Of a DNA stretch of 64,000 nt, positions 12,188-40,706 are shown piece after piece. Each line of letters begins with the position of its first letter. Position 1 is the first letter of the stretch. The position numbers and the translations under genes were made by a program. The notes beneath the pieces are model-generated. The model worked only from the letters and a program-made list of their open reading frames with translations, was not told the DNA's origin and did not search any database. Source of the DNA: an uncultured Rickettsiales bacterium (GTDB lineage Bacteria > Myxococcota_A > UBA796 > UBA9615 > CAYRNR01); contig CAZXHG010000011.1 of assembly GCA_964639985.1 (NCBI GenBank), positions 7,871 through 71,870 of the forward strand, read 5' to 3'.

Positions 12188-12233
12188 GGGAAAACGGGTG
12201 GCACCGGGGTGGATTGGGAAAGCGGGTGGCACC
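12188..12233. repeat. two copies of GGGAAA(A/G)CGGGTGGCACC spaced 28 bp apart
   Basis: read directly; the 17-mer GGAAAACGGGTGGCACC recurs inside the cyclase gene at 29252-29268. Confidence 0.75.
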
Positions 12234-12313
12234 CGAAAAAAGCGGCTGTTCTAAGAACCTGCCCGATACCGGACAGTGTGATGGTGCTCTATCATCGCGA
12301 TGAGGGGTCATCC

Positions 12314-23800: not shown

Positions 23801-24026
23801 GGTCCCGGACCTGGCCGTCGTCGAGCGCCTTGCGAGCGGCTGCCACAACCGGGGTTCCACCCCATCGCTCGCTGCCCCAAAGGTTCTCCAGGTCCAGCTG
23901 CTCGTGTGACGTGTCGAGCAGGCGCAACGCCCGGGCGTTGACGAACGAGCAGCAACCCGAGGTGTCGTACATCACCACGCCCACGGGCACGGCTGCCCAC
24001 AGCGCGTGATCCTGGTGGTCGGACAT
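20823..24026 (-). CDS. large hybrid sensor histidine kinase (PAS/GAF-like, HisKA-HATPase, 2x REC, C-terminal Hpt-like)
   Basis: true ATG at 24024-24026 after AGGAGGGA; H-box [12 protein letters not shown]; two receivers (LIVDDN, LLAEDN); the upstream 797 aa of the track ORF are antisense of the STK-FGE gene. Confidence 0.85.
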
Positions 24027-24107
24027 GCGTCCCTCCTGCGTGAGTGCAAGAGTATCGAAACCCGCGCATGCCGGCGCCGGTTTCGTTACCTCCGCGCGTG
24101 GAGGACA

Positions 24108-26558
24108 ATGGAGATCGAGGCAGCCATGGATCGTTACGAGGACCTGGGACCGATCGGCGGCGGCGGCATGGGCGAGGTGCGGCGGGTGCGGGAGCGCGCG
24201 CTGGGCCGGGTGCTGGCGATGAAGATCGTGCGCGCCGAGCTGGTGGACGATCCGGCGCTGCACGCGCGCTTCGCCGAGGAGGCGCGCATGACCGCGTGGC
24301 TGCAGCACCCGGCGATCATCCCGGTGCACGACGTGGGCCGGCTGGACGACGGTCGGCTGTACTACACCATGCCCGAGGTGCACGGCCGCACCCTGACCGA
24401 AGCCATCGCCGAGGTGCACGACGCGGTGCAGGACCGCACGTGGCGGCCCGCTCCCGACGGCCTCACGTTTCGCGGCCTGGTCGAGTCCTTCCGCCGTGCG
24501 TGTGACGCGGTGGCCTACGCGCATGCCCACGGGGTGGTGCACGGGGACCTCAAGCCCGACAACCTGATGCTCGGGCCCCACGGCGAGGTGTTCGTGCTGG
24601 ACTGGGGTCTGGCGCGCGTCGTGCGGTACGACCGGGGAGCCCCCGGGCCCGAACCCGCGGCCGCCTCGCTGCTGGACCTGGCCGAGCTCCCCGAGACCGA
24701 ACCGCGAATCGGGGGGACGCTGGCCTACATGGCCCCGGAGCGGCTGTGGAGCCCGGAGCTGGAGCAGTCCGCAGACGTGTACGCGCTCGGTGCGCTGCTG
24801 TACGAGCTGCTGGTCGGCGAGCCGCCGTACGGTCGAGAGGTGACGCAGGGATCGTTGCTGCAGCGGGTCGCCTCCACGGCGCCAGCGCCCGTACGGCTGG
24901 CCGCCGGTGAGCGGGAGAGGCCCGCTCTGCCGGATGTGCTGGCCGACGTGGTCGAGGCGGCCATGCGCCGGGAGGCGGACGATCGGCTCGAGGGGGTCGC
25001 GGCGCTCGGCGACGACGTGGGGGACTGGCTCGAGGGGACCCGCCAGCTGCAGCAGGCCGAGGAGCTGGTCGCGGGCGCCCGCAGGGCGCGGGACGAGCTG
25101 GCCGAGGTGCGCGGTGAGGCGAGCCAGCGGCGCGAGCTGGCCGCAACCCTGCTGGCGGCCCTGCCGGCGCAGGCGCCGGTGGAGGACAAGGCCGAGGCCT
25201 GGGACCTCGAGGCGGGTGCGGCCTCGTCCGAACGCTGGGCCGCGCGGCTCGAGGCGGAACTCACCGAGGACCTGCGCGCCGCGCTGGCCCTGGTGGAGGA
25301 CCTGTCCGAGGCTCACGAGATGCTCGCAGAGCACTTCAGGCAGAAGCACCAGGCGGCCGAGGAGTCGCGTGACCTGCTGGCCGCGGAGCGTTTTGCCGTG
25401 CGGCTGCGGCACCACGATCGACCCGGGCGGTTCGTGCGCTACCTGCAGGGGGATGGTGCCCTGACGCTGGTCACGGCCCCACCCGGGGCGCGCGCCGAGC
25501 TGTTCGAGGTGCAGCGGGAGGGACGGCGGCAGGTCCTGCGCCGGGTACGCGATCTGGGCACCACCCCCCTGGTGGAGGTCCCCCTGCCCATGGGCAGCTA
25601 CGTGGTCCGTCTGCGGGCCGAGGGGTGTGCGGAGGTGACCTACCCGGTGCACGTGCGTCGGGGGGAGCACTGGCACGGCCGGCAGCCGGGCGATGACGGA
25701 CCCTGGCCGGTCCTGCTGCCCGCGGAGGGGGAGCTGGAGGACGGCGACTGCTACGTGCCGGCCGGGTGGTTCGGCAGCGGCGGCGACCCCCACGCCCCGG
25801 GCAGCCTCCCCGCACGGCGGATCTGGCTCGACGCCTTCGTCATCCGGCGCGATCCGGTGACTCACGCCGAGTTCGTCGCCTTCCTCGACGACCTGGTCGG
25901 CCAGGGTCGGGAGGGAGAGGCCCTGTCGCTGGCCCCCAGGCTGGGCAGCTCCCCGGGCAGCGGAGAGGGGGAGCTGCTGTACGGTCGGTCTCCTGACGGA
26001 TGCTTCACGCTGGATGGAGGCGTCGCTGCCCTGCCGGTCACGCCGGACCGGCCCGTGGTCTGCGTGTCGTGGCGGGCGGCCGCCGAGTACGCGCGCTGGC
26101 TGATCCTGAACAGCTTCCGCGGCTGGCGGCTGCCTGGTGAGCTCGAGTGGGAGAAGGCCGCCCGCGGCGTGGACGGCAGGTTCTTCCCCTGGGGCGACCA
26201 CCTGGACCCGGGCTGGTGCTGCATGCGCGACAGCCACCCCACCCACCCGGGCATGGCCGCGGTCGGGGATTTCCCGGTGGACTGCAGCCCCTACGGCGTG
26301 CGCGGCATGGCCGGCAACGTGCGCGACTGGTGCCTGGACGCGTTCCGCCCGGATGGCCCCGAGGTGGTGGACGGCGGCTGGTTCCCGGCCGGTGACCCGC
26401 CCGACGGCGTCCCTCACGTGGGCCGCGGTGGCACGTGGTGCGTCAACCCGGTCGGACTGCGCGCGGCCTACCGCGCCTGGTTCGCGCCCACCTTCCGCGC
26501 GGACGATTCCCTGGGATTCCGCCTCGCCTGCTCGTACCCGGACGACTGGAACCAGTAG
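24108..26558 (+). CDS. Ser/Thr protein kinase fused to formylglycine-generating-enzyme (FGE/SUMF1) domain
   Basis: GxGxx[28 protein letters not shown]; C-terminal FGE-like block with [13 protein letters not shown]. Confidence 0.85.
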
Positions 26559-26615: not shown

Positions 26616-28145
26616 ATGAACTCGACCCCACACGAAGACATCGAACGCATCCGCACCGAGCGGGACCTGTTCCTGCGGCTGCTGCAGCTCAGCGGCCAGG
26701 AGGATCTGCACGGGTTCCTGCGCAGCTCCCTGGACCTCGTCCTGGAGCTGACGGGCGCGCGCAAGGGCTACCTGGAGCTGTACACCGAGGAGGACGGCCC
26801 CCCGCGCTGGTCCCTGGCCTTCGGCTGCACCGAGGACGAAGTCGAGGGGATCCGCGAGGCCATCTCCCACGGCATCATCGCCCGCGCCATGGCCTCGGGC
26901 GAGACCGTGTCCACGGCCTCGGCCCTGAACGATCCGCGCTTCGCCGAGCAGGCGTCGGTGCAGTTCAACAAGATCATGGCCGTGTTGTGCGCGCCCATCG
27001 GCGGTGGGGACGGCGAGGCTCCGATGGGCGTGCTGTACCTGCAGGAGCGCGCCAAGATCGGTCCGTTCGACAAGCAGGACAAGCACTACGCCGAGCTCGT
27101 CGCTCGTCATCTCGCGCCCCAGGTGGACCGCCTGCTGCTCAAGCAGCACGCCCTGGACCAGGCCGATCCCACCCGGCCCTGGCGGGACAAGCTCGACATC
27201 GACGGCTTCGTCGGCGCCAGCCAGCCCATCGCGGACGTGCTGCGCACCGTGGCCCTGGTCGCACCCCTGGACATGGGTGTGCTGATCACCGGCCCCACCG
27301 GCACGGGCAAGTCGGAGATCGCGCGCGCCATCCACCGCAACAGCCCGCGTGCGTCCGGGCCGCTGGTGGAGATCAACTGCGCCGCCATCCCCGACACCCT
27401 GGTGGAGAGCGAGCTGTTCGGGGCCATGCCCGGGGCCGCCTCCGGGATCACCAGGAAGATGGAGGGCAAGGTCAGCGCAGCCGAGGGGGGCACCCTGTTC
27501 CTCGACGAGATCGCGGAGCTGCCGCTGCAGTCCCAGTCCAAGATCCTGCAGCTGCTGCAGTCCCGCGAGTACTATCGCCTCGGCTCGTCCCGACCCGAGG
27601 TGGCCGACATCCGCATCGTGGCGGCCACCAATCGCGATCTCGACGAGGCGGTGGCCGAGAAGCACTTCCGCGAGGATTTGTATTTCCGTCTCAACGTGGT
27701 GCCGCTGCGCATGCCCGGTCTGGCCGAGCACCCCGAGGACGTGCCGCTGCTGGCCGACTTCCTGCTGGAGCGCGCGGTGCGCAAGTACCGGCTACCCCGC
27801 CTGCGCCTCAGCCCGGCCGCGGCCGTGGCCATGACGTCCGCGGAGTGGCCGGGCAACGTGCGCGAGCTGGTCAACACCCTCGAGCGCGCCGCGGTCATGG
27901 CCGCGGGCGACGCCTCACCCACCATCGAGCCGGCGCACGTGTTCCCGGACCGCGCCGCACCCGAAGCGGACGAGCTTCCCGGCGACCTCACCTTCCAGGA
28001 GGCCACCCGCCGCTTCCAGCGCACGCTGATCGCCGACGCCCTGGCCGACACCGGCTGGAACGTATCCGAGACCGCGCGGCGCCTCGGCCTGGCCCGCTCC
28101 TACCTGTACGACCTGATCAACGCTCACGGCCTCCAGCGGAGCTGA
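26616..28145 (+). CDS. sigma-54-dependent Fis-family transcriptional activator (GAF-AAA+-HTH) with degenerate GAFTGA loop
   Basis: Walker A GPTGTGKS; ESELFG followed by AMPGAASG instead of HEKGAFTGA; C-terminal Fis HTH. Confidence 0.85.
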   Translation: MNSTPHEDIERIRTERDLFLRLLQLSGQEDLHGFLRSSLDLVLELTGARKGYLELYTEEDGPPRWSLAFGCTEDEVEGIREAISHGIIARAMASGETVSTASALNDPRFAEQASVQFNKIMAVLCAPIGGGDGEAPMGVLYLQERAKIGPFDKQDKHYAELVARHLAPQVDRLLLKQHALDQADPTRPWRDKLDIDGFVGASQPIADVLRTVALVAPLDMGVLITGPTGTGKSEIARAIHRNSPRASGPLVEINCAAIPDTLVESELFGAMPGAASGITRKMEGKVSAAEGGTLFLDEIAELPLQSQSKILQLLQSREYYRLGSSRPEVADIRIVAATNRDLDEAVAEKHFREDLYFRLNVVPLRMPGLAEHPEDVPLLADFLLERAVRKYRLPRLRLSPAAAVAMTSAEWPGNVRELVNTLERAAVMAAGDASPTIEPAHVFPDRAAPEADELPGDLTFQEATRRFQRTLIADALADTGWNVSETARRLGLARSYLYDLINAHGLQRS

Positions 28146-30765
28146 CGCCCCGCACCACGTGGAAGACGGGGAAGGTGCCGTAGCCCTTGGGGAGGGGCTG
28201 GGTGCCGGCGTATTCGCAGGTGAAGTCGTCGACGCCCTCGGCCGCGGCCAGGGCGGTGAAGGCGCGGGAGGCGTAGACGGTGCCGGCCGGGGTGATCTGC
28301 TCGATGCGGGCGGCGCGGCTGACGTGGGCGCCCATGAAGGTGAACTGGCCGGTGACCGGGTCGGTGAGGGCGTGGGTGGGGCCGGCGTGCAGGCCGACGC
28401 GGGTGCGGAGATCGGGGGGCATGCCGGCCTGCTCCCAGTCCGTGGCGCGGAACAGCTCGGACAGTTCCAGGGCGAAGAGGCCTGCGTCGCGGACGGAGAG
28501 GAAGACCATGTACAGGCCGTCGCCCCAGGTGTTGCGCACCACCGGCGCGTGGGCCGAGCGGTCGACGAGGGCGGCGATCTGGCCCAGGTGGTGCTCGGCG
28601 AAGCGGCGGAGCTGCACGTCGTCCAGCTGGCTGAAGCGGGCCGTGTCCGCGAACAACAGGGCCACGATGCGGTGGTCCGCGCCGTCGTCCGTTTCCGGCT
28701 CGTCGGCCGCTGCGTGGGGCAACGGCAGCACCGTGGGTTCGAGCTGGCGCTGCTGCCACAGGGCGATCGTGGCGGCGACGCCGTCCTCGCCCGGTCCGCC
28801 GCCGGACGCGGCGATCGGCACCACGGACGAGCCGAGGTGGCGGGCGCGGAAGGTGGCCAGCCCGAGAGCGACCCGTCGGGCGTAGTCCACGGCCGCGCGG
28901 TTCTGCAGGGCCTGGCGGCGGCCCATCACCTCCACGGTGGCGGCCTGTTCCAGGACCTTGTCGAAGCGCTGGCCCCAGCCCGGCGCCGTGGCCACGCGCT
29001 CGCGCCGGAACTCCTCCACCGGGCAGGGTAGGACGAGGTGCAGGTCACCACCGCGGGCGGCCATGGCCTCGGCGAACATCAGCTCCGCGCCGGCTGCGGC
29101 CGAGGTGTAGCCGTAGCGTGCGCCCGTGCGGTCGAGCTCGCGGGAGAGATGGTTGGCCAGCGCGATCTCCTCGGTCATGGACGAGGTCGGATCGTGGGCG
29201 TGCCGCACCGGCGCCACGAACAGGGCTACGGGTGGGGCAGGAGTCGGGTCCGGAAAACGGGTGGCACCTTCGTTCGCACCTTCGTTCGCAGCACCTTCGT
29301 TCGCACCTTCGTCCGTGACCTCGTCGTCGAATCCGGACAGTCGCCGCTGGTGCAGCAGGGCGCGGGCGCGGCCGGGGGCGCCTCCGGCTCGCAGGGCGGT
29401 GGCGAGCTGGGGGGCGAAGCGGTAGGAGGCCTGGGGCCAGCGGCCGAGGGCTTCGGTCAGGACCTCGGAGGCGAGCCAGGGTTCGCCTGCGGCGAGCAGG
29501 GCATCGGCGATGCGGCGGTAGAAGCCCGGGTTGAGGCGGGCCATGTTGGCGGGTCGGCCGTCCCAGATGGCCAGGAGGTCGGCGAGGCGGGTGGGGAGGG
29601 GGGCGGCGTCCCGCTCCATGCTGATCAGGGAATCGTCCAGGGAGATGCTGGCCGGTCCGCCGGCGGGTTCGCTGCCCAGCCGCTCCAGGGCCCAGCGGGA
29701 GAACATCCGGGAGCCGGCCACGAAGCGGTTGGTGCCCACCTCGCGGATCAGGCCGTTGACCAGCAGCTGGTCGAGGGCGTCCTCCACCCGGTCGACGTCG
29801 CCGCCGTAGATCTCGATGGCCGTGAACTTCTTGAACGGCTCGCGGGCGTGGGCGATCGGCCCGTAGAGCTGGCGTGCCTCGTCGCCGCACGACCCCCACC
29901 ACCGCTGGAAGTCGCCGCGTCGCTCCTTGAGGAAGCGCTGGCGGGCGCGCTCCAGCGCGTCGAGGTCCCCGCCGTCCTCCCAGAGCCTGCCCAGCAGGTA
30001 CTGGGCCAGGTAGGGGTGGCCGCCGACCTCGATGAGCAGCTCGCGTTCGGTGTCGGCCGGGAGGTCCTGGTCGAATCCGGCGCGCACCAGCTCCCTGACC
30101 GCGTCGTCGTCGATCAGCGCCATCTCCACGATGGTGACCACGTTGTAGAACGGCGATCCGGCCGTGCTCCACAGGTCCACGCTGGACAGTGTGCCGGCGA
30201 TGATCACGTTGAACCGTTGACGCAGCGCGCTCTGGCTGATCAGGAAGCGGGTGTTGGTGAAGAAGTCCTTGGACCACTCGTGCTGCCGCAGCTCGTCGAT
30301 CTCATCGAGCATGACGAACAGCTGCACCGTGTCGTCGAGGTCCATCACCTCCCGCAGCGTGTCCACGAAGTGCTCGAACGCGAAGTGCTCGGCCACCTCC
30401 CCGCCGCGCAGGTCCCGGATGGCCACGCCGAGCAGGTCCCGTGCCTCGGCGTGCAGCGAGCCGGAGGTGCGCAGCTCCGACAGGATGGCCGCGAACACGG
30501 CCGAGCGGGCCAGGCGGCCGAACTGCTGGGCGCTGAGCAGCACGGGCACCACCCGCAGCCCGGCGGCGGTCTCGGGCTGACGCCGCAGCTCGTGGGCCAC
30601 GCGCATCAGCAGGGAGGTCTTGCCGATGCGGGTCCCGCCGAGCACGGCAAAGGACTCGCCGCGGCGCGCGCGGCCCGCGATCTCGGCGACCTGGTCGTGG
30701 CGGCCGACGAACAGCGCCGGGCGGTCCTCGGGCTGGTCGAAGCGGTAGGGGGTCTCGCCGTTCAT
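28117..30765 (-). CDS. STAND/AAA+ NTPase, LOG/SLOG-like Rossmann domain and class III adenylate/guanylate cyclase fusion protein
   Basis: Walker A GGTRIGKTS, Walker B LFVMLDEIDE, GxP motif GGHPYL; central YGYTSAAAGAELMFAEAMAARGGDLHLVLP and SGGGPGEDG segments; C-terminal cyclase motifs LLFADTARFS, GDGLYMVF, RVGLHAGP, SRAARIE. Confidence 0.8.
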   Translation of the reverse strand: MNGETPYRFDQPEDRPALFVGRHDQVAEIAGRARRGESFAVLGGTRIGKTSLLMRVAHELRRQPETAAGLRVVPVLLSAQQFGRLARSAVFAAILSELRTSGSLHAEARDLLGVAIRDLRGGEVAEHFAFEHFVDTLREVMDLDDTVQLFVMLDEIDELRQHEWSKDFFTNTRFLISQSALRQRFNVIIAGTLSSVDLWSTAGSPFYNVVTIVEMALIDDDAVRELVRAGFDQDLPADTERELLIEVGGHPYLAQYLLGRLWEDGGDLDALERARQRFLKERRGDFQRWWGSCGDEARQLYGPIAHAREPFKKFTAIEIYGGDVDRVEDALDQLLVNGLIREVGTNRFVAGSRMFSRWALERLGSEPAGGPASISLDDSLISMERDAAPLPTRLADLLAIWDGRPANMARLNPGFYRRIADALLAAGEPWLASEVLTEALGRWPQASYRFAPQLATALRAGGAPGRARALLHQRRLSGFDDEVTDEGANEGAANEGANEGATRFPDPTPAPPVALFVAPVRHAHDPTSSMTEEIALANHLSRELDRTGARYGYTSAAAGAELMFAEAMAARGGDLHLVLPCPVEEFRRERVATAPGWGQRFDKVLEQAATVEVMGRRQALQNRAAVDYARRVALGLATFRARHLGSSVVPIAASGGGPGEDGVAATIALWQQRQLEPTVLPLPHAAADEPETDDGADHRIVALLFADTARFSQLDDVQLRRFAEHHLGQIAALVDRSAHAPVVRNTWGDGLYMVFLSVRDAGLFALELSELFRATDWEQAGMPPDLRTRVGLHAGPTHALTDPVTGQFTFMGAHVSRAARIEQITPAGTVYASRAFTALAAAEGVDDFTCEYAGTQPLPKGYGTFPVFHVVRGVSSAGGRER
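29266..29312. repeat. tandem 12/15-bp coding repeats (TTCGTTCGCA[GCA]CC) encoding the (G-A-N-E)n linker of the cyclase protein
   Basis: read directly; encodes GANEGAANEGANEGA. Confidence 0.7.
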
Positions 30766-33700
30766 GCCTCGATGTCCAGTCGCCGCACCCGGATGTACGT
30801 GCGCAGCAGCCTCATGGTGAACCGGTACTGGTCGCCGCGGCGATCCAGCAGGGAGAACTGCTCGAGGTTCTGCAGCTCGCGGTCGAAGCGGTCGGGATCG
30901 TCGAACAGCCGCGACGTGCGCTGCTGCAGTTCGGTGCGGGTGATGGCGCCGTCCTCGTCCGCGGCCACCGCGTCGAGGATCCCGCGCTGGAAGGAGTTGA
31001 GGTAGAAGCTGAGGATCTCGCCGAAGTACCCCTTCTTCAGGGTCAGGTAGCTCTCCGCGGCCACCCGCACCGTCTGGGCGTTGATCGTCACCGGCCGCTG
31101 GTCACCGGCGACCTTGGCCGTCTCCGAGCACAGCTGGCGGCAGACCATGGGGTGTCCGCCGCTGAGGTCGTACAGGGTGACCAGCGCGTCGTCGGTGAAG
31201 CCCAGGCCCATGCCCGCGCCGAGGTTGGTCACCATCTCCGCGGTCTCGGACGTGCTCAGCGGGCCCACGAACAGCTCGGACAGGTACTGGAAGATGGGGT
31301 TGTCGCGGCCGCCCCAGCGGCCCTGCAGGCACAGCCGGGCGTCCGCGCCGACCACGGCGAAGCCGAACACGTCGCGGAAGTCGGTCTGGTGCAGGCCGCG
31401 CAGCAGGCGGAAGAACGTGTCGTAGTGGGTGAAGCCGTCGTGGAAGTTGCCGCCGTCGAGTTCGTGGGGGATCAGGTGCTCGATCTCGTCGATCAGGAAG
31501 AACAACGTGGTGATGGAGGACGTCTCCAGGATGGCCGCGCGCAGGGTGCGCAGGTTGCCTTCGAACGCGACCATGGCCCCGGCCGGATCGTCCGGCAGCG
31601 GCGTCAGCTCCGGGCCCTCCACGTGCGGGAACTTGGCGGCCCAGTCCTCCAGGGCGCGGTCGCACAGCAGCTGGGCAAGGGAGAGGCAGGACGACGACGC
31701 CACCTCCTGCAGGTCGACCATGGCCACCACCGAGTCCGACAGGTGGGTGCGTAGCCGGTGGGCCAGCGAGGTCTTGCCCATCTTGCGGATGCCGAACACG
31801 CCGAACACCTCGCCCCGGTGCACCTTGCGCACCAGGGTGCGCAGCACCTGGCCGCGGCCGAAGAACTCGGCAGCGTCCAGCACCGGGTCCTTCTTGTCGA
31901 ACAGGTCCTCGCCGAGCAGCCACTGGGACCGCAGCTGGGTGAGCATGGCGCGGGTGCGGAAGTCGGCGACCGCGTCGCGCAGGGTGCGCTCGTCCAGGGG
32001 CAGCATGTGCAGCCGCGGCTGCTCGATCATGGAGGTCATGATCAGCTCGGTGGTGCCCGCGCTGGGCCGGGCCGCGCTGACCAGGACGGCCAGCCCCCGG
32101 GCCGTGCCGTCCCGGTCCTCCATGGAGCGACGGAAGTCCAGCACGTCCTCCGGGGACGGCGCGCGGTTGAGGTAGACCCGCACGCGCGCGTGATCCAGCT
32201 CCTTCCACCACCCGCTCAGGGGTGCGGCGGGGTGCACGAAGATCAGCTCGACCAGGCCGTCGCGGGTCTGCTGCAGCGGCCGGGCCTGCAGACCCAGGGA
32301 GGCGGCCAGCAGCTCGACCACGCCCACGGTGTCGAGGTCCTGCACCAGGGACGCGGCGTAGCGGCTGGCGAACGAACGGGTGTCCGGGATGTGGCTGGCC
32401 CGCTCCAGCGCGGTCAGGGCCAGGGTATGCCGGCCCAGCTTGCGGTGGATCCCGGTCAGCGCCAGCCACAGGAAGCCGTCGGCCGGGTTGCGCCGCGCGT
32501 ACTCCTCGAACGCGGCCTCCACGGCCTTGAGGTAGGGTACGGACTCGTCCACCGCGTCGGCCGAGGCCAGCAGCTGCTCGCGGCAGTCACGGTCCTCGAG
32601 CATGTCCACCACGGCCGAGGTGATCACCCCCACCTGTGGCTCGTCGGTCTCTTCGTAGAACTCCTTGAGCCGGTCGGCGATCATCGGGGCGAGATCCGGC
32701 CGCTGCTCGGCCACCTTGAGCAGGGCCGGGTAGAGGAACAGGATCCCGCCAGACGGGGGCGAGGCCCAGATGATGTGCTCCTCGAGGTCGGTCTCCAGCA
32801 GCGCGTCGGTCAGGCAATCCACGGCCTCGGCCGTGGGGTGCTCGGCCACGGCCTGCTCGGCGAACTCGATGGCCTTGCCCGCGTTGCCCGCGGCGAGCTC
32901 CATGCGGGCGAGCTGGACCATGAAGCGCAGGCGGGGGTCGGGCAGCGCCAGCGTGCGTTCGTACACGGATCGCGCCTCGTCGTCCGCCCGCGCCCGCTGG
33001 GCGTGGCCCAGCGCCAGCAGGGGCAGCAGCGGCGTGTCGGGATCGGAGCCCACCGAGCGGGCCAGGGTGGTGTAGAGGTCCTCCTCGACCAGGCCCAGGG
33101 TCTGCTGGGCCTCCAGCAGGCTGACGAGCTGGTCCGGCGACAGGTTCCGCACGGCGTCGAGCTGCAGCAGGATGTCCCGCACCCCCTGCATGTCCCCCAC
33201 GCGGGAGTAGTACTCGAACAGCCGCTGCAGCACCTCGGGCTCCCGCGGCCACTGGGAGCGGGCCTGCTCCAGCACGGCCCGCTCCTCGTGCGCGTTGGCC
33301 TCTCGCTTGTGGATGCGCGCCATCTGCAGGAAGGGTCGCTTCCACGCCGGCATGATCGTGGCCAGATAGGTGAATGCGGCGCGCGCGAGCTGGGACTTGC
33401 CCAGCGCCAGGAACAGGTCGCCCTGCAGCAGCACCACCAGCGCCAGCCCCACGGCCAGCGCCAGGGCGCCGAGCACCCAGCGACCCAGCGCGCCAACGCG
33501 CGCCTCCCGGTCCTGCTGCACGGCGATGTAGGTCTGCATCTCCTGGGCCTGGGGGTGCCACGGCTCCAGGGCCAGCACGGTCGCACACGCGGCATCGGCC
33601 GCCTCCCAGCGGTGGTCCTGCACGGCCTGCTGGCAGCGGGCGAACTCCCCCTCCACCCGGTCCGGATGGGCGGCCTGGCGGGCCCAGGCGCGGCGCCGGC

Positions 33701-34307
33701 TCAGCTCCCAGTCGTCGGGGTAGAACCGAAGCGCGGCCGTGGTCAGGGTCTGCACGTCCAGCGCGTACTCGTCGGTCAGCGGCCGTTGCAGCGCCAGCGA
33801 GCGCAGCTGCTGGCCGATGGCGTCGGTCCACGCGCGCAGCACGGCCGCGTCCGCGGGCAGGGCCTGCTGGGCGACGAACAGCTCGAGCTCACCCTGGCGG
33901 TAGTCCCCCTCGTCGAGCAGCCGCGTGCCCAGCACGTAGTGGGCCGTGGCCAGGTTGCCGGCCCGGTCGAACAGGCAGCCGTGGCCATGGTCCACGCCCA
34001 CGCCGATCACCTCGGCCACGGCCACGTCGCACAGGGGGTGGTCGGTCTCGGGCAACCGTTCGCGGCAGTCCGCACCGAACTCGTCCAGCGCCAGCGTGGT
34101 CACCGTCAGCCAGGCCTCGTGGGAGAACGAGTCCTCGGCCCAGCACGGCGACAGCTGGCTCACGCGGTCCAGCAGATCCGGATCGACCTCCGGGATCTCG
34201 ACCTGGGCCGCGGCGTGGCCGCCGAGGAGCAACGACAGCAGCAGCAGTGTGGGATGGAGCGATCGCCTCACACGGCGATCGTAGGGAGGTGGGGTGCGGG
34301 CGGTCAA
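30762..34307 (-). CDS. membrane-anchored STAND NTPase with periplasmic N-terminal domain, TPR-like region and C-terminal NTPase
   Basis: signal peptide ...GGHAAAQ, one TM (LGALALAVGLALVVLL); Walker A FGIRKMGKTS, Walker B LFFLIDEIEH, GGHPMV; TTG start at 34307 (alternative GTG at 34271); ATGA-type overlap with the cyclase gene. Confidence 0.75.
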   Translation of the reverse strand: MTARTPPPYDRRVRRSLHPTLLLLSLLLGGHAAAQVEIPEVDPDLLDRVSQLSPCWAEDSFSHEAWLTVTTLALDEFGADCRERLPETDHPLCDVAVAEVIGVGVDHGHGCLFDRAGNLATAHYVLGTRLLDEGDYRQGELELFVAQQALPADAAVLRAWTDAIGQQLRSLALQRPLTDEYALDVQTLTTAALRFYPDDWELSRRRAWARQAAHPDRVEGEFARCQQAVQDHRWEAADAACATVLALEPWHPQAQEMQTYIAVQQDREARVGALGRWVLGALALAVGLALVVLLQGDLFLALGKSQLARAAFTYLATIMPAWKRPFLQMARIHKREANAHEERAVLEQARSQWPREPEVLQRLFEYYSRVGDMQGVRDILLQLDAVRNLSPDQLVSLLEAQQTLGLVEEDLYTTLARSVGSDPDTPLLPLLALGHAQRARADDEARSVYERTLALPDPRLRFMVQLARMELAAGNAGKAIEFAEQAVAEHPTAEAVDCLTDALLETDLEEHIIWASPPSGGILFLYPALLKVAEQRPDLAPMIADRLKEFYEETDEPQVGVITSAVVDMLEDRDCREQLLASADAVDESVPYLKAVEAAFEEYARRNPADGFLWLALTGIHRKLGRHTLALTALERASHIPDTRSFASRYAASLVQDLDTVGVVELLAASLGLQARPLQQTRDGLVELIFVHPAAPLSGWWKELDHARVRVYLNRAPSPEDVLDFRRSMEDRDGTARGLAVLVSAARPSAGTTELIMTSMIEQPRLHMLPLDERTLRDAVADFRTRAMLTQLRSQWLLGEDLFDKKDPVLDAAEFFGRGQVLRTLVRKVHRGEVFGVFGIRKMGKTSLAHRLRTHLSDSVVAMVDLQEVASSSCLSLAQLLCDRALEDWAAKFPHVEGPELTPLPDDPAGAMVAFEGNLRTLRAAILETSSITTLFFLIDEIEHLIPHELDGGNFHDGFTHYDTFFRLLRGLHQTDFRDVFGFAVVGADARLCLQGRWGGRDNPIFQYLSELFVGPLSTSETAEMVTNLGAGMGLGFTDDALVTLYDLSGGHPMVCRQLCSETAKVAGDQRPVTINAQTVRVAAESYLTLKKGYFGEILSFYLNSFQRGILDAVAADEDGAITRTELQQRTSRLFDDPDRFDRELQNLEQFSLLDRRGDQYRFTMRLLRTYIRVRRLDIEA

Positions 34308-34325: not shown

Positions 34326-35750
34326 TCAGCCGGGGAACAGGTTGATCGGGAACACGGCCTCGTACTCCTCGCCCGTGGCCGGGAAGCTCCAGCGTTTGAC
34401 CCGGCGGCACAGGTCCAGGCCCAGGTCGCGGTTGCCCGTGGAGTTGGCCGACGTGGTCACCTCGATCACCTTGCCGTCCACGCCCACCAGCACCGTCAGC
34501 TCCACCTTGCCCGCGAGCTCGGGCTCGTCCTTGAGGTGGCGCTCGTAGATGTGCTGCACCTCGCCGGCGTGGCGGGACAGCACAGCGGCGACCGAGCCGT
34601 GGTCCACGCCCGGGTCCACGAACGGGTCCTCGGGCTCGATGATCGCGGTCACCGCGGCCTGGTCGCGGTCGGTGGTGCCCGTCTCGCCCGCGCCGAAACC
34701 CCCGTGCTCGCCGATGGTGCCGGCCGTGCCGTCCCCGCCGCCGGTGTGGCGGGTCGACTCGCGAGCGTCCGCCACCGTGGCGTTGCGGAAGCCATTGGAG
34801 CGGCCGATGGCCTCGTCGAGGTTGGCCTCGAGCGTTCCCGAGTCGGCCATCAGGTCCAGGGTGGCCGTGCCGTTGTTGTTGTCCGAGTTGGTCGGGATCA
34901 GGGCTGCGGCCAGGCCCATGCTGCGCAGCTGCTCCATGCGCTGCGCGCGCAGCTCCTCGGCCGACAGCTGCTCGCCGCCGTCGGCCAGCGCGTCGTCCTC
35001 GCCCGGGCCCGGCTCGCCCGGATCGTCCGCCTCGGCCGTGGCCGGGTCGTCCGTGGGCGTGGGGATGTCCAGGGTCGGCTCGTCGATGGGGTCCTCGGCG
35101 TCCGGGTCGATCTGCAGCATCTCGTCGACCACCTCCTCGGGCAGCCAGATCTCGGCGAACCGCTCCGGGATGTCGTCCAGACCCAGGTGGGGCGGTGGCG
35201 CGGGCCGCGACTGCAGGTAGGTGTAGCCCGCGATGTTGAGCACCGTGGACAGCACCACGAACGACCAGAACACCCAGTCCACCTCGGCCATGTTCATGGG
35301 GCTGAAGCTGACCGCCACCCGCCGGGGCTCCGGGGGCGCGGGCACGAACTGGAACAGCACCGTGGTGCCGCCGATGCGCACCTTGCCGCGGTTGCCGTCA
35401 GCGAGCTTGAGGTGGTGCACGCCGCGGCGCTGGGGCGTGGCGCCGGCCAGCCGCTCCAGGGTCTGCACGGTGCCGTCGATGAACACCTTGCCCTGCATCT
35501 TGCGGTCGAAGGCCAGGTGGTAGCCGTCGGCGCGGGCCACGAACAGCCGGTGGTGATCGGGCAGGTGCGAGGCGGGCAGCACGAACATGTTGTCCGCGGC
35601 CTCGCCCACGGTCACGCTACGGCCGCTGCGGATCAGCCGCTCCTCCACGATCCGCGGTCCCTGGATGATGCCGATGCGCAGGACCTTGCCGCGCGGGCGG
35701 TCCTTGCGGGACAGGCTGCGGGTCTTGCTGATGATGCCGTCGGTACCCAT
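34326..35750 (-). CDS. TonB C-terminal domain protein with N-terminal cytoplasmic beta-rich (FHA/PilZ-like) domain and acidic linker
   Basis: ATG after GGAGGAAACGACG; one TM; C-terminal KVELTVLVGVDGKVIEV...RWSFP matches TonB_C. Confidence 0.7.
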   Translation of the reverse strand: MGTDGIISKTRSLSRKDRPRGKVLRIGIIQGPRIVEERLIRSGRSVTVGEAADNMFVLPASHLPDHHRLFVARADGYHLAFDRKMQGKVFIDGTVQTLERLAGATPQRRGVHHLKLADGNRGKVRIGGTTVLFQFVPAPPEPRRVAVSFSPMNMAEVDWVFWSFVVLSTVLNIAGYTYLQSRPAPPPHLGLDDIPERFAEIWLPEEVVDEMLQIDPDAEDPIDEPTLDIPTPTDDPATAEADDPGEPGPGEDDALADGGEQLSAEELRAQRMEQLRSMGLAAALIPTNSDNNNGTATLDLMADSGTLEANLDEAIGRSNGFRNATVADARESTRHTGGGDGTAGTIGEHGGFGAGETGTTDRDQAAVTAIIEPEDPFVDPGVDHGSVAAVLSRHAGEVQHIYERHLKDEPELAGKVELTVLVGVDGKVIEVTTSANSTGNRDLGLDLCRRVKRWSFPATGEEYEAVFPINLFPG

Positions 35751-35917
35751 CGTCGTTTCCTCCGGCCCGTCCGGGCCATCGCTACAGGCGCACTGGAGGT
35801 CCTGTGCACGGGGTGTGCCAGGAATGCAGATGGGGCGACGTCAGTCGTTCCGGGGAACAGGGGTGTCCGGAATAGCGGACAGGCTATCGAGGGCGGGTGT
35901 CGGCGGGGGCGGACAGG

Positions 35918-36268
35918 CTACCAGCTGGTGTCGTCGTCGCCGCCGGTGTCGTCGTCGCCGCCGGTGTCGTCGTCACCGGAGTCGGCGTACCACGCCGGCG
36001 CGCAGTCGTCGCCGCAGCCGCACTCGTCGACCAGTTCCCATTCCAGTACCGGATCACCGGCGCAGGAGTCCTGGGCCCAGGTCTCGCAGTCGTCGAGCGC
36101 GTCCGCCTCGGTGGTGCAGGCGCGGTTCTCGCCGTACGTGCCCTGGCAGGAGTAGAAGCAGCTGGCGAAGCTGCCGTCGTCGTCGTCTCCGCCGCCTCCG
36201 GCGCAGGCCCACAGGGCGAGGGGTAGGGCGATGGCGGTGATGATCAGCGCGGTCTTGAGGTGGGTCAT
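35918..36268 (-). CDS. small Cys-rich lipoprotein with (GGDDDT)3 tail
   Basis: lipobox LALWAC; 12 Cys; C-terminal tandem repeats. Confidence 0.55.
   Translation of the reverse strand: MTHLKTALIITAIALPLALWACAGGGGDDDDGSFASCFYSCQGTYGENRACTTEADALDDCETWAQDSCAGDPVLEWELVDECGCGDDCAPAWYADSGDDDTGGDDDTGGDDDTSW
35927..35980. repeat. 3 x 18-bp tandem repeat GGTGTCGTCGTCGCCGCC (coding, minus strand gives GGDDDT)
   Basis: read directly. Confidence 0.8.
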
Positions 36269-36358
36269 GGGTTCCTCCCCGGGCGAGTCCTGGTGTGGGT
36301 TGGGCTGGATTCTATGACAGGTTGGAATCCAGGTGCGAGCGTGCTCCGAACGAGTCGG

Positions 36359-37816
36359 TCAACTGCGAGCGTGCCTTCTCTTCACCCGTCTTCCGACCAG
36401 GCAGGCGGTTCGCGTGTCGGTGAAGCCGTCGGCGGTCCTGCTGGTCACGAACCGTCGCCCGTCCTCGCGGCGCGCGTACATCACCACGCGCGTGGGCTGG
36501 CCGGTGCGGTCGTACAGGGCGGTGTAGGTCTCGATGGTGCCGTCGGCGTCGGGGGTGTCGACGACCTCGACCGGGGGATCGCCCACGAGGGGGGCGGCGG
36601 CGTCCTGCGGGTCGAACCGGGCCAGCTCCCCGTCCCCGGGCTCGCAGGCGTACACGCCGGCGGCGTGCTTGTGCAGGAACCAGCTCAGGGCGGTGACCAG
36701 GCCGTTGTCCAGGTCGCCGTGGGCGATGCGCTCGGCCAGGGTGGCGATGCCGTGCAGGTTGTAGTCGTTGCCCGGGCCGCCGAAGAAGCCGAGACCGCCG
36801 GTGAGGGTCAGGGGGCGGGGGTCGTCGTGGGCCAGGCCCAGCTCGTGGCAGGCCATGGTCACGGCGCAGGGGAAGCAGCTGTACAGGTCGAAGGCCTGCA
36901 TCTCGTCGACCGTGATGCCGGCGCGCGCCATGGCGCGGGAGGCGGCCGCGCCCAGGGCCGCGTTGCGGGTGAAGTCCCGCTTGTGCACCAGGAACCGCTG
37001 ACGGTCCTCGGTGCAGGCGCCGCCGCGGAAGTACACCGGTCGCAGGCCCTTGCGCGCCGGGGCCAGGTCCGCGCGGGCCAGCAGCACGGCCGCGCCCTGG
37101 TCCACGGTGACCAGGGAGTTCATGTACTTGGTGTAGGGGAAGGAGATACGGCGGTTGTCCGGCGTGGGCGTGATGATCTCCTCGACGGTCCGAGCCTGCG
37201 GGGTCCAGGCGTAGGGATTGCGGGCCGCGACCTCGCTGAAGCGCGCCCACATCTCGCCCACCTGCCGACGCCACGCGTCCAGTTCCATGCCCGACGCCGC
37301 CCACAGGGCGACCTCGAACAGGGGGAACCCGTGGATCGGCGCCACGATCCCGTGCTCCCGCTCCAGGTCCGTGGAGCCGCGCAGGTCGTCGCCGTCGTAG
37401 TCGTCCTTCACACCCGCGAACAGCGCCTGGTCGCCGGGCAGGCCCTGCAGCCGGTTGCGGTAGTAGGCCTCGGCCCCGACCACGAGCACGCGGTCGAGCT
37501 CGCCGCGCGCGATCAGGCCTGCGGCGCGGCTGACCAGGGTCTGGGGCGAGTTGCCGCCGATGCGGGAGACCTCGAGCAGGCGTGGGCGGGCGCCCAGCCG
37601 TTCGGTCAGCCGGGCCTCGCCGTCGCCCACGTGCGCGCTCATGGGCCGCACCACGAGGATGGCGTCGACCTGCCGCAGGATATCCGGGTCGCGGGTGGTC
37701 TCGGCCGCGCGCCGCGCCGCGGTCTCCATCAGGCCCACGGGCCCGCGGCGTTCGCCGGTGTGCTCCTTGCGCTGGACCACCTGGCCCCAGCCCGCGACGA
37801 CCACCTTCACGCCCAT
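36359..37816 (-). CDS. thiolase-like protein (acetyl-CoA acetyltransferase / SCP-x thiolase family)
   Basis: 485 aa; thiolase-like Cys-containing N-terminal half and conserved C-terminal GGLGFFGGPGNDYNLHGIATL block. Confidence 0.7.
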   Translation of the reverse strand: MGVKVVVAGWGQVVQRKEHTGERRGPVGLMETAARRAAETTRDPDILRQVDAILVVRPMSAHVGDGEARLTERLGARPRLLEVSRIGGNSPQTLVSRAAGLIARGELDRVLVVGAEAYYRNRLQGLPGDQALFAGVKDDYDGDDLRGSTDLEREHGIVAPIHGFPLFEVALWAASGMELDAWRRQVGEMWARFSEVAARNPYAWTPQARTVEEIITPTPDNRRISFPYTKYMNSLVTVDQGAAVLLARADLAPARKGLRPVYFRGGACTEDRQRFLVHKRDFTRNAALGAAASRAMARAGITVDEMQAFDLYSCFPCAVTMACHELGLAHDDPRPLTLTGGLGFFGGPGNDYNLHGIATLAERIAHGDLDNGLVTALSWFLHKHAAGVYACEPGDGELARFDPQDAAAPLVGDPPVEVVDTPDADGTIETYTALYDRTGQPTRVVMYARREDGRRFVTSRTADGFTDTRTACLVGRRVKRRHARS

Positions 37817-37823
37817 CGTCGTC

Positions 37824-38963
37824 CTACCTGTCCTCTCGCAGCTCGTAGCGGATCCAGCGGGCGTCCACCGGACCGATCTGCACGGGGTGGCGGCGGGCTG
37901 CCTTGAGCCGCAGCGGTCGGGTGATCGCGGAGTCGCCGGACAGCAGGTGGGCCGTGGCCCCGGCGCACTGGTCCTTGAGGAACCGTCCCAGGTCGGTCCA
38001 GGCCTGCTGCTGTGTGTCCTCGTCCAGCCGCCTCCCCCACGGCGGGTTGCAGACCACGTGGTCGGGGGGGGACGGCCGGGTGTTGTGGGCGAGGTCCGTG
38101 TGCTGCAGGTCGATGCGGTCGCGCACGCCCGCGGCCGTCAGGCTCTTGCGGGCGATGCCCAGCGCGCCGGCGTGGTGGTCCGCTCCGGTGATGTGGAAAT
38201 CGCGTTCTCGCCCGTCCGCGTACCGCTGCTCGGCCTCGTCGAGCAGCGCCCGCCACGGCCCCGCCTCGAAGTCGGGCCAGCGCTGGAAAGCGAACCGCCG
38301 CCGCAGCCCCGGCGCCCGGTCCTGGACCAGGTGGGCCGCCTCGACCAGGAAGGTGCCCGATCCGCACATGGGGTCGTGCAGCGAGCCCTCACCGGCCCAG
38401 CCCGTGAGCAGCAGCAGCCCGGCGGCCACGGCCTCGTTGAGCGGGCTCTTGACCTGCACCGGCCGCCAGCCCCGGCGGTGCAGGCTGTCGCCGCTGAGGT
38501 TGCGCAGCATCGTGGCGCGGTCGTCGCGCACGATCACGCGCAGGGGCACGTCCGGGTCGGCCGTGTCCACGTCGGGCCTGCGTCCGTGCTTCGCCCGCAG
38601 GCGGTCGACGATGCCGTCCTTGACCACCAGCGAGACAAAGCGCGAGTCGCTGGCGCGGCTGTCGTTCACGGCCGCGGTCACGGCCAGGGTGCAGTCCGGT
38701 TCGATCACCGGATCCCAGTCGAAGCCGCGCACCGCGTCGTACAGCTGCTCGCGGCTGGCGGCCGGGCGGTTGCGGAACAGCTGCTCCTGCACGCGGCTCG
38801 CCGCGCGTAGCCACAGGCAGGCCGCGTACCCCGTGGCCAGCGGGCCGTGGAACTGCACCCGTCCGCGCAGCGTGCGCAGGTGCTGCACGCCCAGGGCCTG
38901 CAGCTCGGCGGCGACGACGTCCTCCAGCCCGAGGGCGCAGGTGGCGAAGAAGGTGCGGCTCAT
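37824..38963 (-). CDS. THUMP-domain class I SAM-dependent RNA (m2G-type, RlmL/RlmKL-like) methyltransferase
   Basis: true ATG at 38963; GSGTFL SAM motif and NPPWG catalytic motif; the upstream part of the track ORF is an out-of-frame overlap of the next gene. Confidence 0.75.
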   Translation of the reverse strand: MSRTFFATCALGLEDVVAAELQALGVQHLRTLRGRVQFHGPLATGYAACLWLRAASRVQEQLFRNRPAASREQLYDAVRGFDWDPVIEPDCTLAVTAAVNDSRASDSRFVSLVVKDGIVDRLRAKHGRRPDVDTADPDVPLRVIVRDDRATMLRNLSGDSLHRRGWRPVQVKSPLNEAVAAGLLLLTGWAGEGSLHDPMCGSGTFLVEAAHLVQDRAPGLRRRFAFQRWPDFEAGPWRALLDEAEQRYADGRERDFHITGADHHAGALGIARKSLTAAGVRDRIDLQHTDLAHNTRPSPPDHVVCNPPWGRRLDEDTQQQAWTDLGRFLKDQCAGATAHLLSGDSAITRPLRLKAARRHPVQIGPVDARWIRYELREDR

Positions 38964-38974
38964 GGCCGCGCAGT

Positions 38975-40573
38975 CTACTCGAAATGGAACAGGTGGAAAG
39001 ACCAGCCGACCCGGCCTGCGACCTCGTGGCGGGCCAGCCAGTCGGTGGGTACGCCGTGCTGTTGCTCGTACAGCCTGCCGCGGATGAGCTCCTGGGTGCT
39101 CAGCGCGTACCAGCCCGGCGCCGGCTCGGCCGCGGCCCACGACCCGTCGGTCAGGGGCTCGTGGTCGATGCCGTAGTACGCGGGATCCGCGCTCACGACC
39201 CACGCGTAGCGCAGGTGCACGCGCCCGATGCCGCGGCGGTCGAGCTCGGCCTTCAGCCGCCGCAGGTCCTGACCCCAGTCGATGTTCGAGTCGTCGAGCA
39301 CGGCGTGGCCGTTGGCCGATCCACCGACCAGGTCGCTGAAGTACGACATCTGGTGGGGGTGCACCACGGCGGTGGACAGCACGGCCCGGGCCACCAGCAG
39401 GCCCAGCACGATCTTCATCACGTTGTTCGTCCACAGCGCCGGCGCCACGCGGCCCACGAACACGAACAGCAGCGGGTAGCACGGCAACAGGTAGCGCGCG
39501 CCGATGTTCGCGGCCAGGGTCGCGGTCACCACCGCGAACAGCAGCGGTGGCAGCACCAGCCACAGCTCCTCCATGTCGTCGTCGGTGCGCCTGTGACCGA
39601 ACAGGGCCAGCCCGCAGGCCGCACCCAGCAGCACCAGCACGGCCAGCCGGGTCTTGGCCAGGAAGGCCGCGGGGAAGTACCACCAGACCCCCCCCTGTTC
39701 GAAGCGGCCGAAGGCGTAGAAGTGGTAGTCGTCCGCGTGATCCGCGTTCACCCGCAGCAGGCCGTCGAGGTAGAAGCCCGCGTCCAGGGGGAAGCCGTAG
39801 CAGGCCCAGGCCACCAGCGCGCCAGTGGCGACCATGGCTGCGCCGATGGCCACGGTCTTGCCGAAACGGCGGCCGGGCGTGACCCCGGTGCCGCGGCGGC
39901 CCGAGCCGTCGAACGGCCGCAGCACCCACGTCAGCAGCAGCACGGCCATGACCGGCAGCAGGAACACCCCCGAGAACTTGGCGGCGAGGGTGCCGCCCAG
40001 CATCACGCCGGCCACGCCCAGCTGCGCGTAGGCGCCGCCGCGCAGGTAGGCGCGCAGGTGGAACAGGGTGGCGGTCCAGAACAGGGCCAGGCCCACGTCC
40101 ATGGTGACCAGGCCGGTATGACCCAGCACCAATGGGCAGGTGGCATACAGCAGCAGGGACAGGGCCGCGCCGCGGGTGCCCCACAGGGACCGGGACCACA
40201 GGTAGACGTAGATCCCGAGCACCAGGCCCAGCAGCACCATCGGCAACCGGCCCCACAGCAGCAGCAGGTCCGCGTCGTTGCCGTACAGGAAGCGGTGGCC
40301 GAAGCCCCACTCCTCCACCGGGTCGGAGGTCCAGCCCGGATCGTCCAGGTCGAGCTCGGGCTGCAGGCCCAGCAGCGGCAGGCCGGCCAGCAGCTTGATC
40401 AGCGGCGGGTGCTGCGGGTTGAGGCGGTAGTCGCCGGTGGCCAGGTAGGTGTAGCCCGCGGGCAGGTGGGTGACCTCGTCCGAGGTGGCGCTCGAACCCC
40501 AGGTGGCGGTCACGGCCAGGACCGCCATCAGCACCAGCCCGGCCGCGATCACGGCCAGGTCGAGGCGGGGCAT
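38975..40573 (-). CDS. glycosyltransferase family 39 (ArnT/PMT-like, phospholipid-carrier-dependent) membrane protein
   Basis: ~11 TM; N-terminal DE motif region (SDEVTHLPAG); ATG 40573 (MPRLDLAV). Confidence 0.8.
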   Translation of the reverse strand: MPRLDLAVIAAGLVLMAVLAVTATWGSSATSDEVTHLPAGYTYLATGDYRLNPQHPPLIKLLAGLPLLGLQPELDLDDPGWTSDPVEEWGFGHRFLYGNDADLLLLWGRLPMVLLGLVLGIYVYLWSRSLWGTRGAALSLLLYATCPLVLGHTGLVTMDVGLALFWTATLFHLRAYLRGGAYAQLGVAGVMLGGTLAAKFSGVFLLPVMAVLLLTWVLRPFDGSGRRGTGVTPGRRFGKTVAIGAAMVATGALVAWACYGFPLDAGFYLDGLLRVNADHADDYHFYAFGRFEQGGVWWYFPAAFLAKTRLAVLVLLGAACGLALFGHRRTDDDMEELWLVLPPLLFAVVTATLAANIGARYLLPCYPLLFVFVGRVAPALWTNNVMKIVLGLLVARAVLSTAVVHPHQMSYFSDLVGGSANGHAVLDDSNIDWGQDLRRLKAELDRRGIGRVHLRYAWVVSADPAYYGIDHEPLTDGSWAAAEPAPGWYALSTQELIRGRLYEQQHGVPTDWLARHEVAGRVGWSFHLFHFE

Positions 40574-40706
40574 GTTCGGGGCCTGGTCCGGGGGTGTGGG
40601 CACGGTCCGATCGTAGTACGGAGGGCCATGTTGCGGCGCAACAAATTCCCTTGATTTGTTGTGCGAACGCACATAGGGTGTGCGTGACGAGGCTGGAGGA
40701 AGGACC

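Follow-up and report, generated by a model that had tools for sequence, protein, structure and literature searches.

What does a cell do with a STAND NTPase predicted to span its membrane, when the gene for it overlaps that of a second STAND NTPase ending in a nucleotidyl cyclase? The question is raised by a 64,000-nucleotide (nt) stretch (the window) of contig CAZXHG010000011.1 from an uncultured Rickettsiales bacterium, in which the two genes, here called T and P, lie end to start on the minus strand. A sequence-only reading of the window had described them as a two-component-like relay. We lean towards a broader answer, that T and P are a split sensor/effector STAND NTPase pair with conflict-system logic, T serving as the sensor and P as the effector. 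The genes and their junction are as follows.

30762..34307, minus strand: gene T ("sensor STAND"), maximal open reading frame (ORF), 1181 amino acids (aa) from TTG 34307
28117..30765, minus strand: gene P ("effector STAND"), 882 aa
30762..30765, minus strand: ATGA stop/start overlap (...gaggcATGAacggc...), TGA of T and ATG of P

Pairing of T and P and exchange of outputs

The overlap reported by the sequence-only reading was confirmed as ATGA, and its proposal that the two NTPase modules are paralogous agrees with a BLASTP match of 25% identity over 285 aa (E = 2e-10). The GC content of T by codon position (0.74/0.44/0.95) has the same pattern as the genuine genes of the window, where overall GC is about 70%. 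The start of P is judged sound because a conserved, family-wide N-terminal motif, NPY..P..F.GR, begins right after it.

Twelve close homologues of T were found among 5.8 billion clustered proteins, and a P homologue follows T in all 13 close loci (L001-L013), usually 0-4 nt away. The same 4-bp overlap is present in L001 and L012, and gaps of 3-4 nt are found in L003 and L005. Hidden Markov models of the T-type and P-type NTPases were scanned over 80 metagenome loci, which had been collected with a 9-sequence alignment. The informative loci were those that were non-redundant, had a strong T-type match and offered at least 900 nt downstream; a P-type gene stood immediately downstream of T in 31 of these 38, with P upstream in one and weak P-like matches in three more. 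The earlier reading had named a lack of co-occurrence elsewhere as the ground on which its pairing would fall, and the adjacency in close and distant loci alike decisively removes that ground. At E<=1e-10 the T-type NTPase module has 1009 representatives, of which the best 150 all place it at or close to the C-terminal end. More distant T-like proteins are mostly solo, with 2 of 16 paired, and the contigs of three homologues (P0036, P0039 and P0034) end too soon to show a partner. A distant cytoplasmic pair, made up of an HTH-TPR-T protein and a bare P, occurs in L014. A tblastn search of plasmids returned only distant proteins (22-27% identity) annotated as AAA-like, ATP-binding or NACHT; in the two plasmid regions inspected, from Klebsiella and Deinococcus, such proteins were solo and no T-P pair was seen.

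T and P have diverged together. Their identity matrices correlate with r = 0.94 over 42 pairs, a value reached by none of 2000 Mantel permutations, and r is 0.59 among the pairs with less than 45% T identity. The Walker A Lys is present in every T and every P of the 42 pairs. The Walker B Asp-Glu is found in all 42 T proteins; in P the Asp is found in 42, the Glu in 40 and an acidic residue at the Glu position in 41. A conserved Arg is shared by 42 T and 41 P proteins, and the GGHP motif of the T-type sequences keeps its G in 42, its H in 40 and its P in 42. These comparisons indicate that T and P are cognate, co-evolving and apparently active partners, and the adjacency and co-divergence support the functional pairing that had been proposed for them.

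One could also suppose that T restrains P in the manner of a guard or antitoxin, and that P fires when T is lost, degraded or disturbed. Translational coupling with T placed first would ensure that T is made whenever P is made, and the first product of a two-gene conflict system is often its regulator. Against this, the NTPase motifs are complete in both proteins, whose co-divergence is like that of subunits in a single complex, and nothing points to instability of T. We regard restraint by T as highly improbable.

The output carried by P is exchanged from locus to locus. In L013 P bears a TIR_2 domain (E = 1e-16), and its T, 40% identical, keeps the signal-peptide/Cys-rich N-terminus. In L005, where T is 50% identical, P bears a HEPN_Swt1-like match with an RNDQAH motif (E = 2.7e-4; 21.6 bits, below the 27.5 cut-off), so that its output is probably HEPN. 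Pfam searches of 34 distant P proteins found CHAT (three), CAP12/Pycsar TIR (three), pPIWI-associated nuclease (three), caspase (two), EAD7 (two) and Metallophos (two), together with SLFN-AlbA_2, TIR_2, TIR and DUF4062. As a separate observation, the signal-peptide/Cys-rich part of the L013 T (8994-10067) lies in a different frame from the rest (10004-13033), which is probably an assembly frameshift, or else marks a real pseudogene.

The N-terminal regions of T-type relatives vary in turn. Their repeats are of the TPR type in 14 of 29 proteins and of the WD40 type in 5, and a crude scan found hydrophobic segments in 72 of the 161 top T relatives. The six membrane relatives that were checked all have propeller repeats (Reg_prop and/or Sortilin/BNR-type) ahead of the cytoplasmic NTPase, and in five of the six a hydrophobic segment at the N-terminus is joined by a second one that follows the propeller. 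T proteins with a transmembrane (TM) segment are paired with P in L021, L025, L038, L043, L056, L058 and L078. Judging from these sequences, the cyclase is one interchangeable output and not the defining feature of the pair. Conflict (immune) systems show this pattern: an NTPase core that stays constant, a sensor that varies on one protein (here T) and a toxic or signalling effector that varies on the other (here P). The two-component-like relay proposed earlier is supported in its pairing and too narrow in its scope, the pair belonging to a family with swapped outputs.

One further arrangement was noted in L101 (1387-5167, minus strand), where a Trypsin_2-TIR-TPR-S-MAP3K_TRAF_bd protein and a Metallophos protein lie by the T orthologue P0034 (43% identity) on the opposite strand, and where the contig stops before the expected P gene. 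By this arrangement, TPR-S recurs with conflict-type effectors near such sensors.

Architecture and predicted topology of T

The features of T are listed below from the N-terminus, with aa numbering of the 1181-aa version (from TTG 34307) throughout; pLDDT is the predicted local distance difference test of AlphaFold2 (AF2) models.

34206..34271, minus strand: signal-peptide-like N-terminus, MRRSLHPTLLLLSLLLGGHAAA then Q, aa 13-34, a direct reading of the translation
33477..34205, minus strand: predicted extracytoplasmic all-helical domain, weakly TPR-like, aa 35-277, pLDDT ~85-90
33420..33476, minus strand: predicted single TM helix, VLGALALAVGLALVVLLQG, aa 278-296, Kyte-Doolittle 2.42
32298..33419, minus strand: predicted cytoplasmic TPR-like helical repeats, aa 297-670, helical hairpins, pLDDT ~80
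31965..32297, minus strand: alpha/beta domain, aa 671-781, pLDDT 80-93
30765..31964, minus strand: STAND-type P-loop NTPase, helical domain and C-terminal winged helix, aa 782-1181
31767-31793, minus strand: Walker A, GIRKMGKTS, aa 839-847
31479-31505, minus strand: Walker B, LFFLIDEIE, aa 935-943
31149-31160, minus strand: GGHP motif (GxP type), aa 1050-1053

After MRRS, the N-terminus has the shape of a signal peptide (LLLLSLLLGG-HAAA, then Q), with n, h and c regions and AxA. The hydrophobic stretch ending in AxA-Q is kept in 12 of 12 homologues although its sequence diverges. Residues 278-296 form the sole strongly hydrophobic segment of T and are followed by a charge count of +4/0; in the AF2 model an unbroken helix (aa 252-301) spans this segment, and the TM helix is seen in all family members. 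The homologue alignment shows six invariant Cys residues (C55, C81, C93, C111, C225 and C241), all confined to aa 55-241, which is consistent with an oxidised outside domain. From these features we infer that T is a Sec-exported inner-membrane protein that crosses the membrane once, its N-terminus lying outside and its C-terminus in the cytoplasm. Searches placed the outside domain in no known family, and sequence and profile searches of the PDB gave weak TPR similarity only.

The repeats on the cytoplasmic side match TPR_14 (24.6 bits, cut-off 23.5) and PrsT-like TPR (E = 5.5e-12), and they precede the NTPase, which inverts the classical STAND order. The alpha/beta domain that follows has the order strand-strand-helix-strand-helix-strand-helix-strand, a topology like that of the restriction-endonuclease fold, and is conserved across the wider T-type family (GF, E/D687, R710 and P770). 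A conserved catalytic triad is absent from it, and a sequence/profile search of the PDB found no match; a restriction-endonuclease-like fold, drawn from topology and the GF motif only, is a guess.

A full-length AF2 model of T, built from 13 sequences, gave a poor NTPase (pLDDT 35-60), and aa 665-1181 were hence remodelled with a 41-sequence alignment (pLDDT 90.4, predicted template modelling score 0.76). The second model contains the alpha/beta domain, a P-loop NTPase, helices and, at the C-terminus, a strand hairpin plus helix that make up the winged helix. The nearest folds to the T NTPase are archaeal ATPase_2-type and NB-ARC, and the predicted fold is closest to structures of the STAND/ORC-Cdc6 clade. 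By its motifs and modelled fold, T is a STAND-class NTPase.

Most of the architecture given by the sequence-only reading stands. The signal-peptide-like stretch and the single predicted TM segment are kept in the homologues, and the motifs FGIRKMGKTS, LFFLIDEIEH and GGHP are present at the C-terminus. The ~240-aa outside domain is likewise found, with six invariant Cys in place of the four that were counted, and to the TPR-like repeats and STAND NTPase must be added an alpha/beta domain at aa ~671-781 that had been missed.

Which part of T receives the cue? It could be that ligand sensing falls to the cytoplasmic TPR-like repeats, as in soluble STANDs, and that the periplasmic domain and TM helix serve only to anchor T or hold it at the membrane. 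Soluble proteins with N-terminal TPR or WD40 make up most of the T-type relatives, and identity among homologues is higher in the cytoplasmic repeats (~51-72%) than in the outside domain (~34-55%). The outside domain nevertheless keeps its six invariant Cys and many further invariant residues, and the distant relatives with ligand-binding propellers (Reg_prop, Sortilin/BNR) N-terminal to the NTPase are hard to explain by anchoring. Sensing by the repeats with a mere anchor outside is thus quite unlikely, and the outside domain is kept in the proposed sensor region of T.

The start of T is the one boundary at which the ORF of 30762-34307 (1181 aa) given by the sequence-only reading needs revision. 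Two features bear on it.

34271, minus strand: GTG, favoured start of T, 1169 aa; the NCBI protein P0001 is identical (100%) and begins MRRSL
34278..34307, minus strand: sigma-70-like promoter match TTGACC-N18-TACGAT, ending 7 nt before GTG 34271; consensus match only

TTG 34307 is itself part of the first (-35) hexamer, TTGACC, of the sigma-70-like match, and one such match was found where 0.2 would be expected by chance. In the two relatives compared, L001 and L012, the -35 TTGACC is identical, the -10 is TAC(C/G)AT and GTG 34271 is conserved, while the 18-nt spacer between the hexamers diverges at every codon position. GTG 34271 is therefore the likelier start, and TTG 34307 is disfavoured on the same grounds, though not conclusively. 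The earlier reading had called this boundary uncertain and had named GTG 34271 as the alternative. The arrangement suggests that T has its own promoter and a (near-)leaderless or short-leader transcript; a leaderless start would explain the missing ribosome-binding site.

Proposed mechanism, neighbourhood and the case for housekeeping signalling

P divides into three regions.

29656-30765, minus strand: P NTPase, aa 1-370; AAA_35 33.5 bits (cut-off 27)
28696-29655, minus strand: TPR-S-like region and a conserved domain without assignment, aa 371-690; TPR-S detected in homologues
28120-28695, minus strand: class III cyclase domain, aa 691-882; Guanylate_cyc 23.2 bits (cut-off 21.9)

The Guanylate_cyc match is higher in P homologues (31.4 bits). 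The metal-binding Asp pair of the cyclase (FAD and GD) and its transition-state Arg (AAR) align with Rv1264 and are invariant in 17 homologues, and the domain is probably an enzyme. For the middle domain between TPR-S and cyclase, which is well conserved, no usable match came from searching the PDB by sequence and profile, and a SLOG-like fold is a guess. P also contains a tandem repeat at 29264-29315 (period 12-15 nt, ~3-4 copies) that encodes an (A/E)NEG low-complexity linker, DEGANEGAANEGANEGA; this linker repeat is lacking in relatives.

In the mechanism that we propose, T would run from a disulfide-bearing periplasmic helical domain through the TM helix, the TPR-like repeats and the alpha/beta domain to the STAND NTPase-winged helix, and P would be cytoplasmic, with an NTPase homologous to that of T followed by its output module (TPR-S, middle domain and class III nucleotidyl cyclase). 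A cue acting on the sensor region of T (the periplasmic domain, possibly with the cytoplasmic repeats) would first relieve autoinhibition. T would then exchange nucleotide or bind NTP and nucleate a hetero-oligomer with P through both NTPase modules, by analogy with NAIP and NLRC4 or with a sensor NLR and its helper NLR. Clustering would finally join the cyclase domains of P and lead to a cyclic nucleotide; in the orthologous pairs, the same trigger would activate TIR or HEPN instead. Class III cyclases act only as dimers, with active sites that form at the dimer interface, and activation of a cyclase by clustering is for that reason mechanistically natural.

Several observations weigh against a conflict-type sensor/effector pair. 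The coupling is not obligatory: L008 and L010 carry inserts of 0.9-2.2 kb between T and P, so that coupling can be broken without loss of either gene. T falls below the cut-off of every Pfam NTPase family (AAA_16 21.9 against 32.6, nSTAND6 19.7 against 27.7, AAA_35 12.4 against 27), and its topology is predicted from the conserved Cys, the charge bias and hydrophobicity. That T and P touch each other is a supposition of the model. In the cyclase, the substrate-specifying Lys is replaced by Asn in 17 of 17 homologues and the Asp by Thr, and the transition-state Asn is replaced by Ser in the 16 NTPase-linked (paired) homologues; since the canonical Lys and Asn are replaced, the activity and product of the domain are uncertain. 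No effector that binds cyclic nucleotide monophosphates (cNMP) was found in the cluster. Among the closest relatives, synteny around the cluster is stable and the neighbours are signalling and metabolic genes, not a defence island; such a neighbourhood fits domesticated signalling as well as defence.

Two details belong beside these points. Within the L008 insert (10180-12430) lie two ORFs, one small and lipoprotein-like and one PIN/VapC-like, as well as a permease fragment; the L010 insert spans 10140-11060. The stand-alone TPR-S-cyclase protein P0033 retains the transition-state Asn.

The genes flanking the pair are the following.

34326..35750, minus strand: upstream gene, 474 aa, ending 18-54 nt before T
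26616..28145, plus strand: GAF - sigma-54 activator - HTH_8 gene, convergent, its 3' end overlapping the 3' end of P by 29 nt

The protein of the upstream gene starts with a cytoplasmic domain, continues with a hydrophobic segment around aa 157-178 and an acidic/Pro-rich linker, and ends in a TonB_C-like domain. This last domain is of the AgmX/PglI type (myxo_SS_tail, NF033768, 58.2 bits, cut-off 40), and the protein is GltG-like (E = 4.8e-25); these NCBIfam matches (GltG, myxo_SS_tail) are to Myxococcota-specific families and, with the 70% GC, point to Myxococcota. Against the PDB, its N-terminus gave only a non-significant hint (E = 0.7) to the FHA domain of Rv1747, and an FHA-like fold is a guess. 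The gene stands beside T in 10 loci (L001-L004 and L007-L012; 40-51% identity) and is absent in L005, with its HEPN-type P, and L013, with its TIR. The GAF-sigma54 gene is syntenic in L001, L007, L008 and L012 and not in L003 or L010. To name this activator as a candidate cNMP receiver is pure speculation.

Farther out, the 1864-aa ORF at 20823-26417 (minus strand) is partly a shadow, with a real PAS-HisKA-HATPase-2xREC hybrid kinase at 20823-23822 (minus strand); the ORF at 24006-26558 (plus strand) is real and encodes a Ser/Thr kinase-FGE-sulfatase fusion, 63% identical to the syntenic gene of L001. On the other side, between the AgmX-like gene and an AMP-binding/hydrolase block (35750-40700), the window has ~5 kb more DNA than L001, L007 and L012. 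This extra DNA holds PMT_2 glycosyltransferase-like and thiolase-like genes and is partly shared with L003, L008 and L010.

Could the same two-gene STAND machine have been domesticated here for housekeeping signalling, turning envelope or motility state into a cAMP/cGMP signal with no conflict role? Its input might come via the upstream AgmX/GltG-like TonB_C protein, and its output could feed the adjacent GAF-sigma54 activator, GAF domains being able to bind cNMP. The cluster is syntenic in relatives at 61-72% identity among a hybrid histidine kinase, a Ser/Thr kinase-FGE fusion, the GAF-sigma54 activator and metabolic genes; the upstream gene is co-conserved in the 10 loci, and all close relatives carry a cyclase and not a toxic effector. 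On the other hand, the output is a probable HEPN in the orthologous pair whose sensor is 50% identical and a TIR in the one at 40%, caspase/CHAT and nucleases occur in the wider family, and the AgmX-like and sigma54 genes are missing from several loci that retain T-P. Moreover, cNMP cyclases are themselves common outputs of conflict systems (PMC7159879). Domestication is a serious rival, which we nonetheless hold to be rather unlikely. A conflict or alarm system (directed at phage, envelope attack or kin conflict), and not a metabolic regulator, is the most likely ancestor of the module, which may still serve in that role.

The comparisons place T-P as a probable variant within STAND conflict or signalling systems, and the two-gene module appears to be widespread. 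We go one step further only tentatively: T-P pairs might be widespread, undescribed bacterial immune or alarm receptors in which one STAND senses, often by spanning the membrane with an extracytoplasmic ligand-binding part, and a co-evolving STAND executes by way of an exchangeable TIR, HEPN, caspase, nuclease or cyclase domain. What could be entered as a hypothetical TPR protein plus an odd cyclase becomes a defined, testable two-protein module. Its clear targets for mutation are the Walker A Lys in T and in P, the Asp residues of the cyclase and the outside domain, and orthologous sensors wired to TIR or HEPN offer natural controls.

Comparison with known systems

The earlier reading had recognised no described system in this arrangement, and we found no description of the T-P pair in the literature searched, with its partial coverage, or in PADLOC v2; the nearest precedent is the nSTAND2 pair. 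For T, P and the gene upstream of them, PADLOC v2 gave only a P-loop-level match, to T (E = 0.056); for eight proteins of distant pairs it matched some effector domains and no NTPase model. A 2026 STAND census (PMC13581612) took its sensors from the region that follows the NTPase and would for that reason not capture the layout of T. Censuses of C-terminal sensors and catalogues such as PADLOC v2 thus miss the T-P family.

In the literature searched, each bacterial STAND/NLR-like immune sensor is one cytoplasmic protein that recognises phage proteins once these have entered the cell. Avs proteins (e.g. SeAvs3, PDB 8dgc) combine effector, NTPase and sensor, in that order, in one cytoplasmic polypeptide, whereas T-P divides these functions between two genes: the sensor of T is N-terminal to its NTPase, T is predicted to span the membrane, the effector is on the second protein, and no PADLOC model matches the NTPases.

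The nSTAND2 two-gene system (Kaur et al. 2021, PMC8195603), a predicted counter-invader system with a predicted hetero-multimer and with GT4 or HEPN as its main effectors, resembles T-P in having two adjacent STAND genes with variable effectors, HEPN among them, fused to one. It differs in that one of its partners has eroded NTP-binding motifs, whereas T and P both retain their Walker motifs, and in that its family is nearer CR-ATPase/Dap3 (PMC8195603), the nearest folds here being archaeal ATPase_2-type and NB-ARC. nSTAND2 is also absent among the Pfam families listed for the T and P sets (AAA_35, AAA_16, ATPase_2, nSTAND1 and nSTAND6), the lists for the larger sets covering the first member and the commonest families. 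We rejected T-P as an nSTAND2 system, two defining features (an eroded partner and, among the families listed, nSTAND2 membership) being lacking. The archaeal Walker-type ATPases PABY2304 and SSO1545 (Pfam ATPase_2) and the proteins of AAA_35 are stand-alone, of unknown function, and without sensor repeats, membrane anchor, effector or partner.

Mycobacterial STAND-cyclases of the Rv0386 type are single proteins with an N-terminal cyclase and a LuxR HTH. P is like them in joining a class III cyclase to a STAND NTPase and in its non-canonical substrate residues, but its cyclase is C-terminal. Pycsar shares the use of cNMP as a conflict signal and pairs its cyclase with a cNMP-binding effector, which the T-P cluster lacks. 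Hybrid two-component sensors with periplasmic Reg_prop have an outside part (signal peptide, Reg_prop/BNR propeller and TM) like that of distant T-type relatives, and this shared part supports extracytoplasmic sensing in the T-type family. Their output is a histidine kinase with a receiver, whereas that of a T-type protein is a STAND NTPase; no HisKA, HATPase_c or Response_reg was found in T, P or the upstream gene, and the two-component likeness is an analogy only.

The logic of T-P comes closest to that of the sensor/helper NLR pairs of plants and animals and of NAIP-NLRC4, in which one NTPase senses and a homologous one executes via hetero-oligomers. Those pairs are eukaryotic, cytosolic and independently evolved, and the T-P complex is a prediction from sequence. 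If the prediction is true, T-P brings the sensor/helper principle into bacteria, and a membrane-spanning T adds surface sensing to NLR-type switches, which would permit an NLR-type response to events outside the cytoplasm (for example kin contact, phage adsorption or envelope attack) ahead of any entry into the cell.

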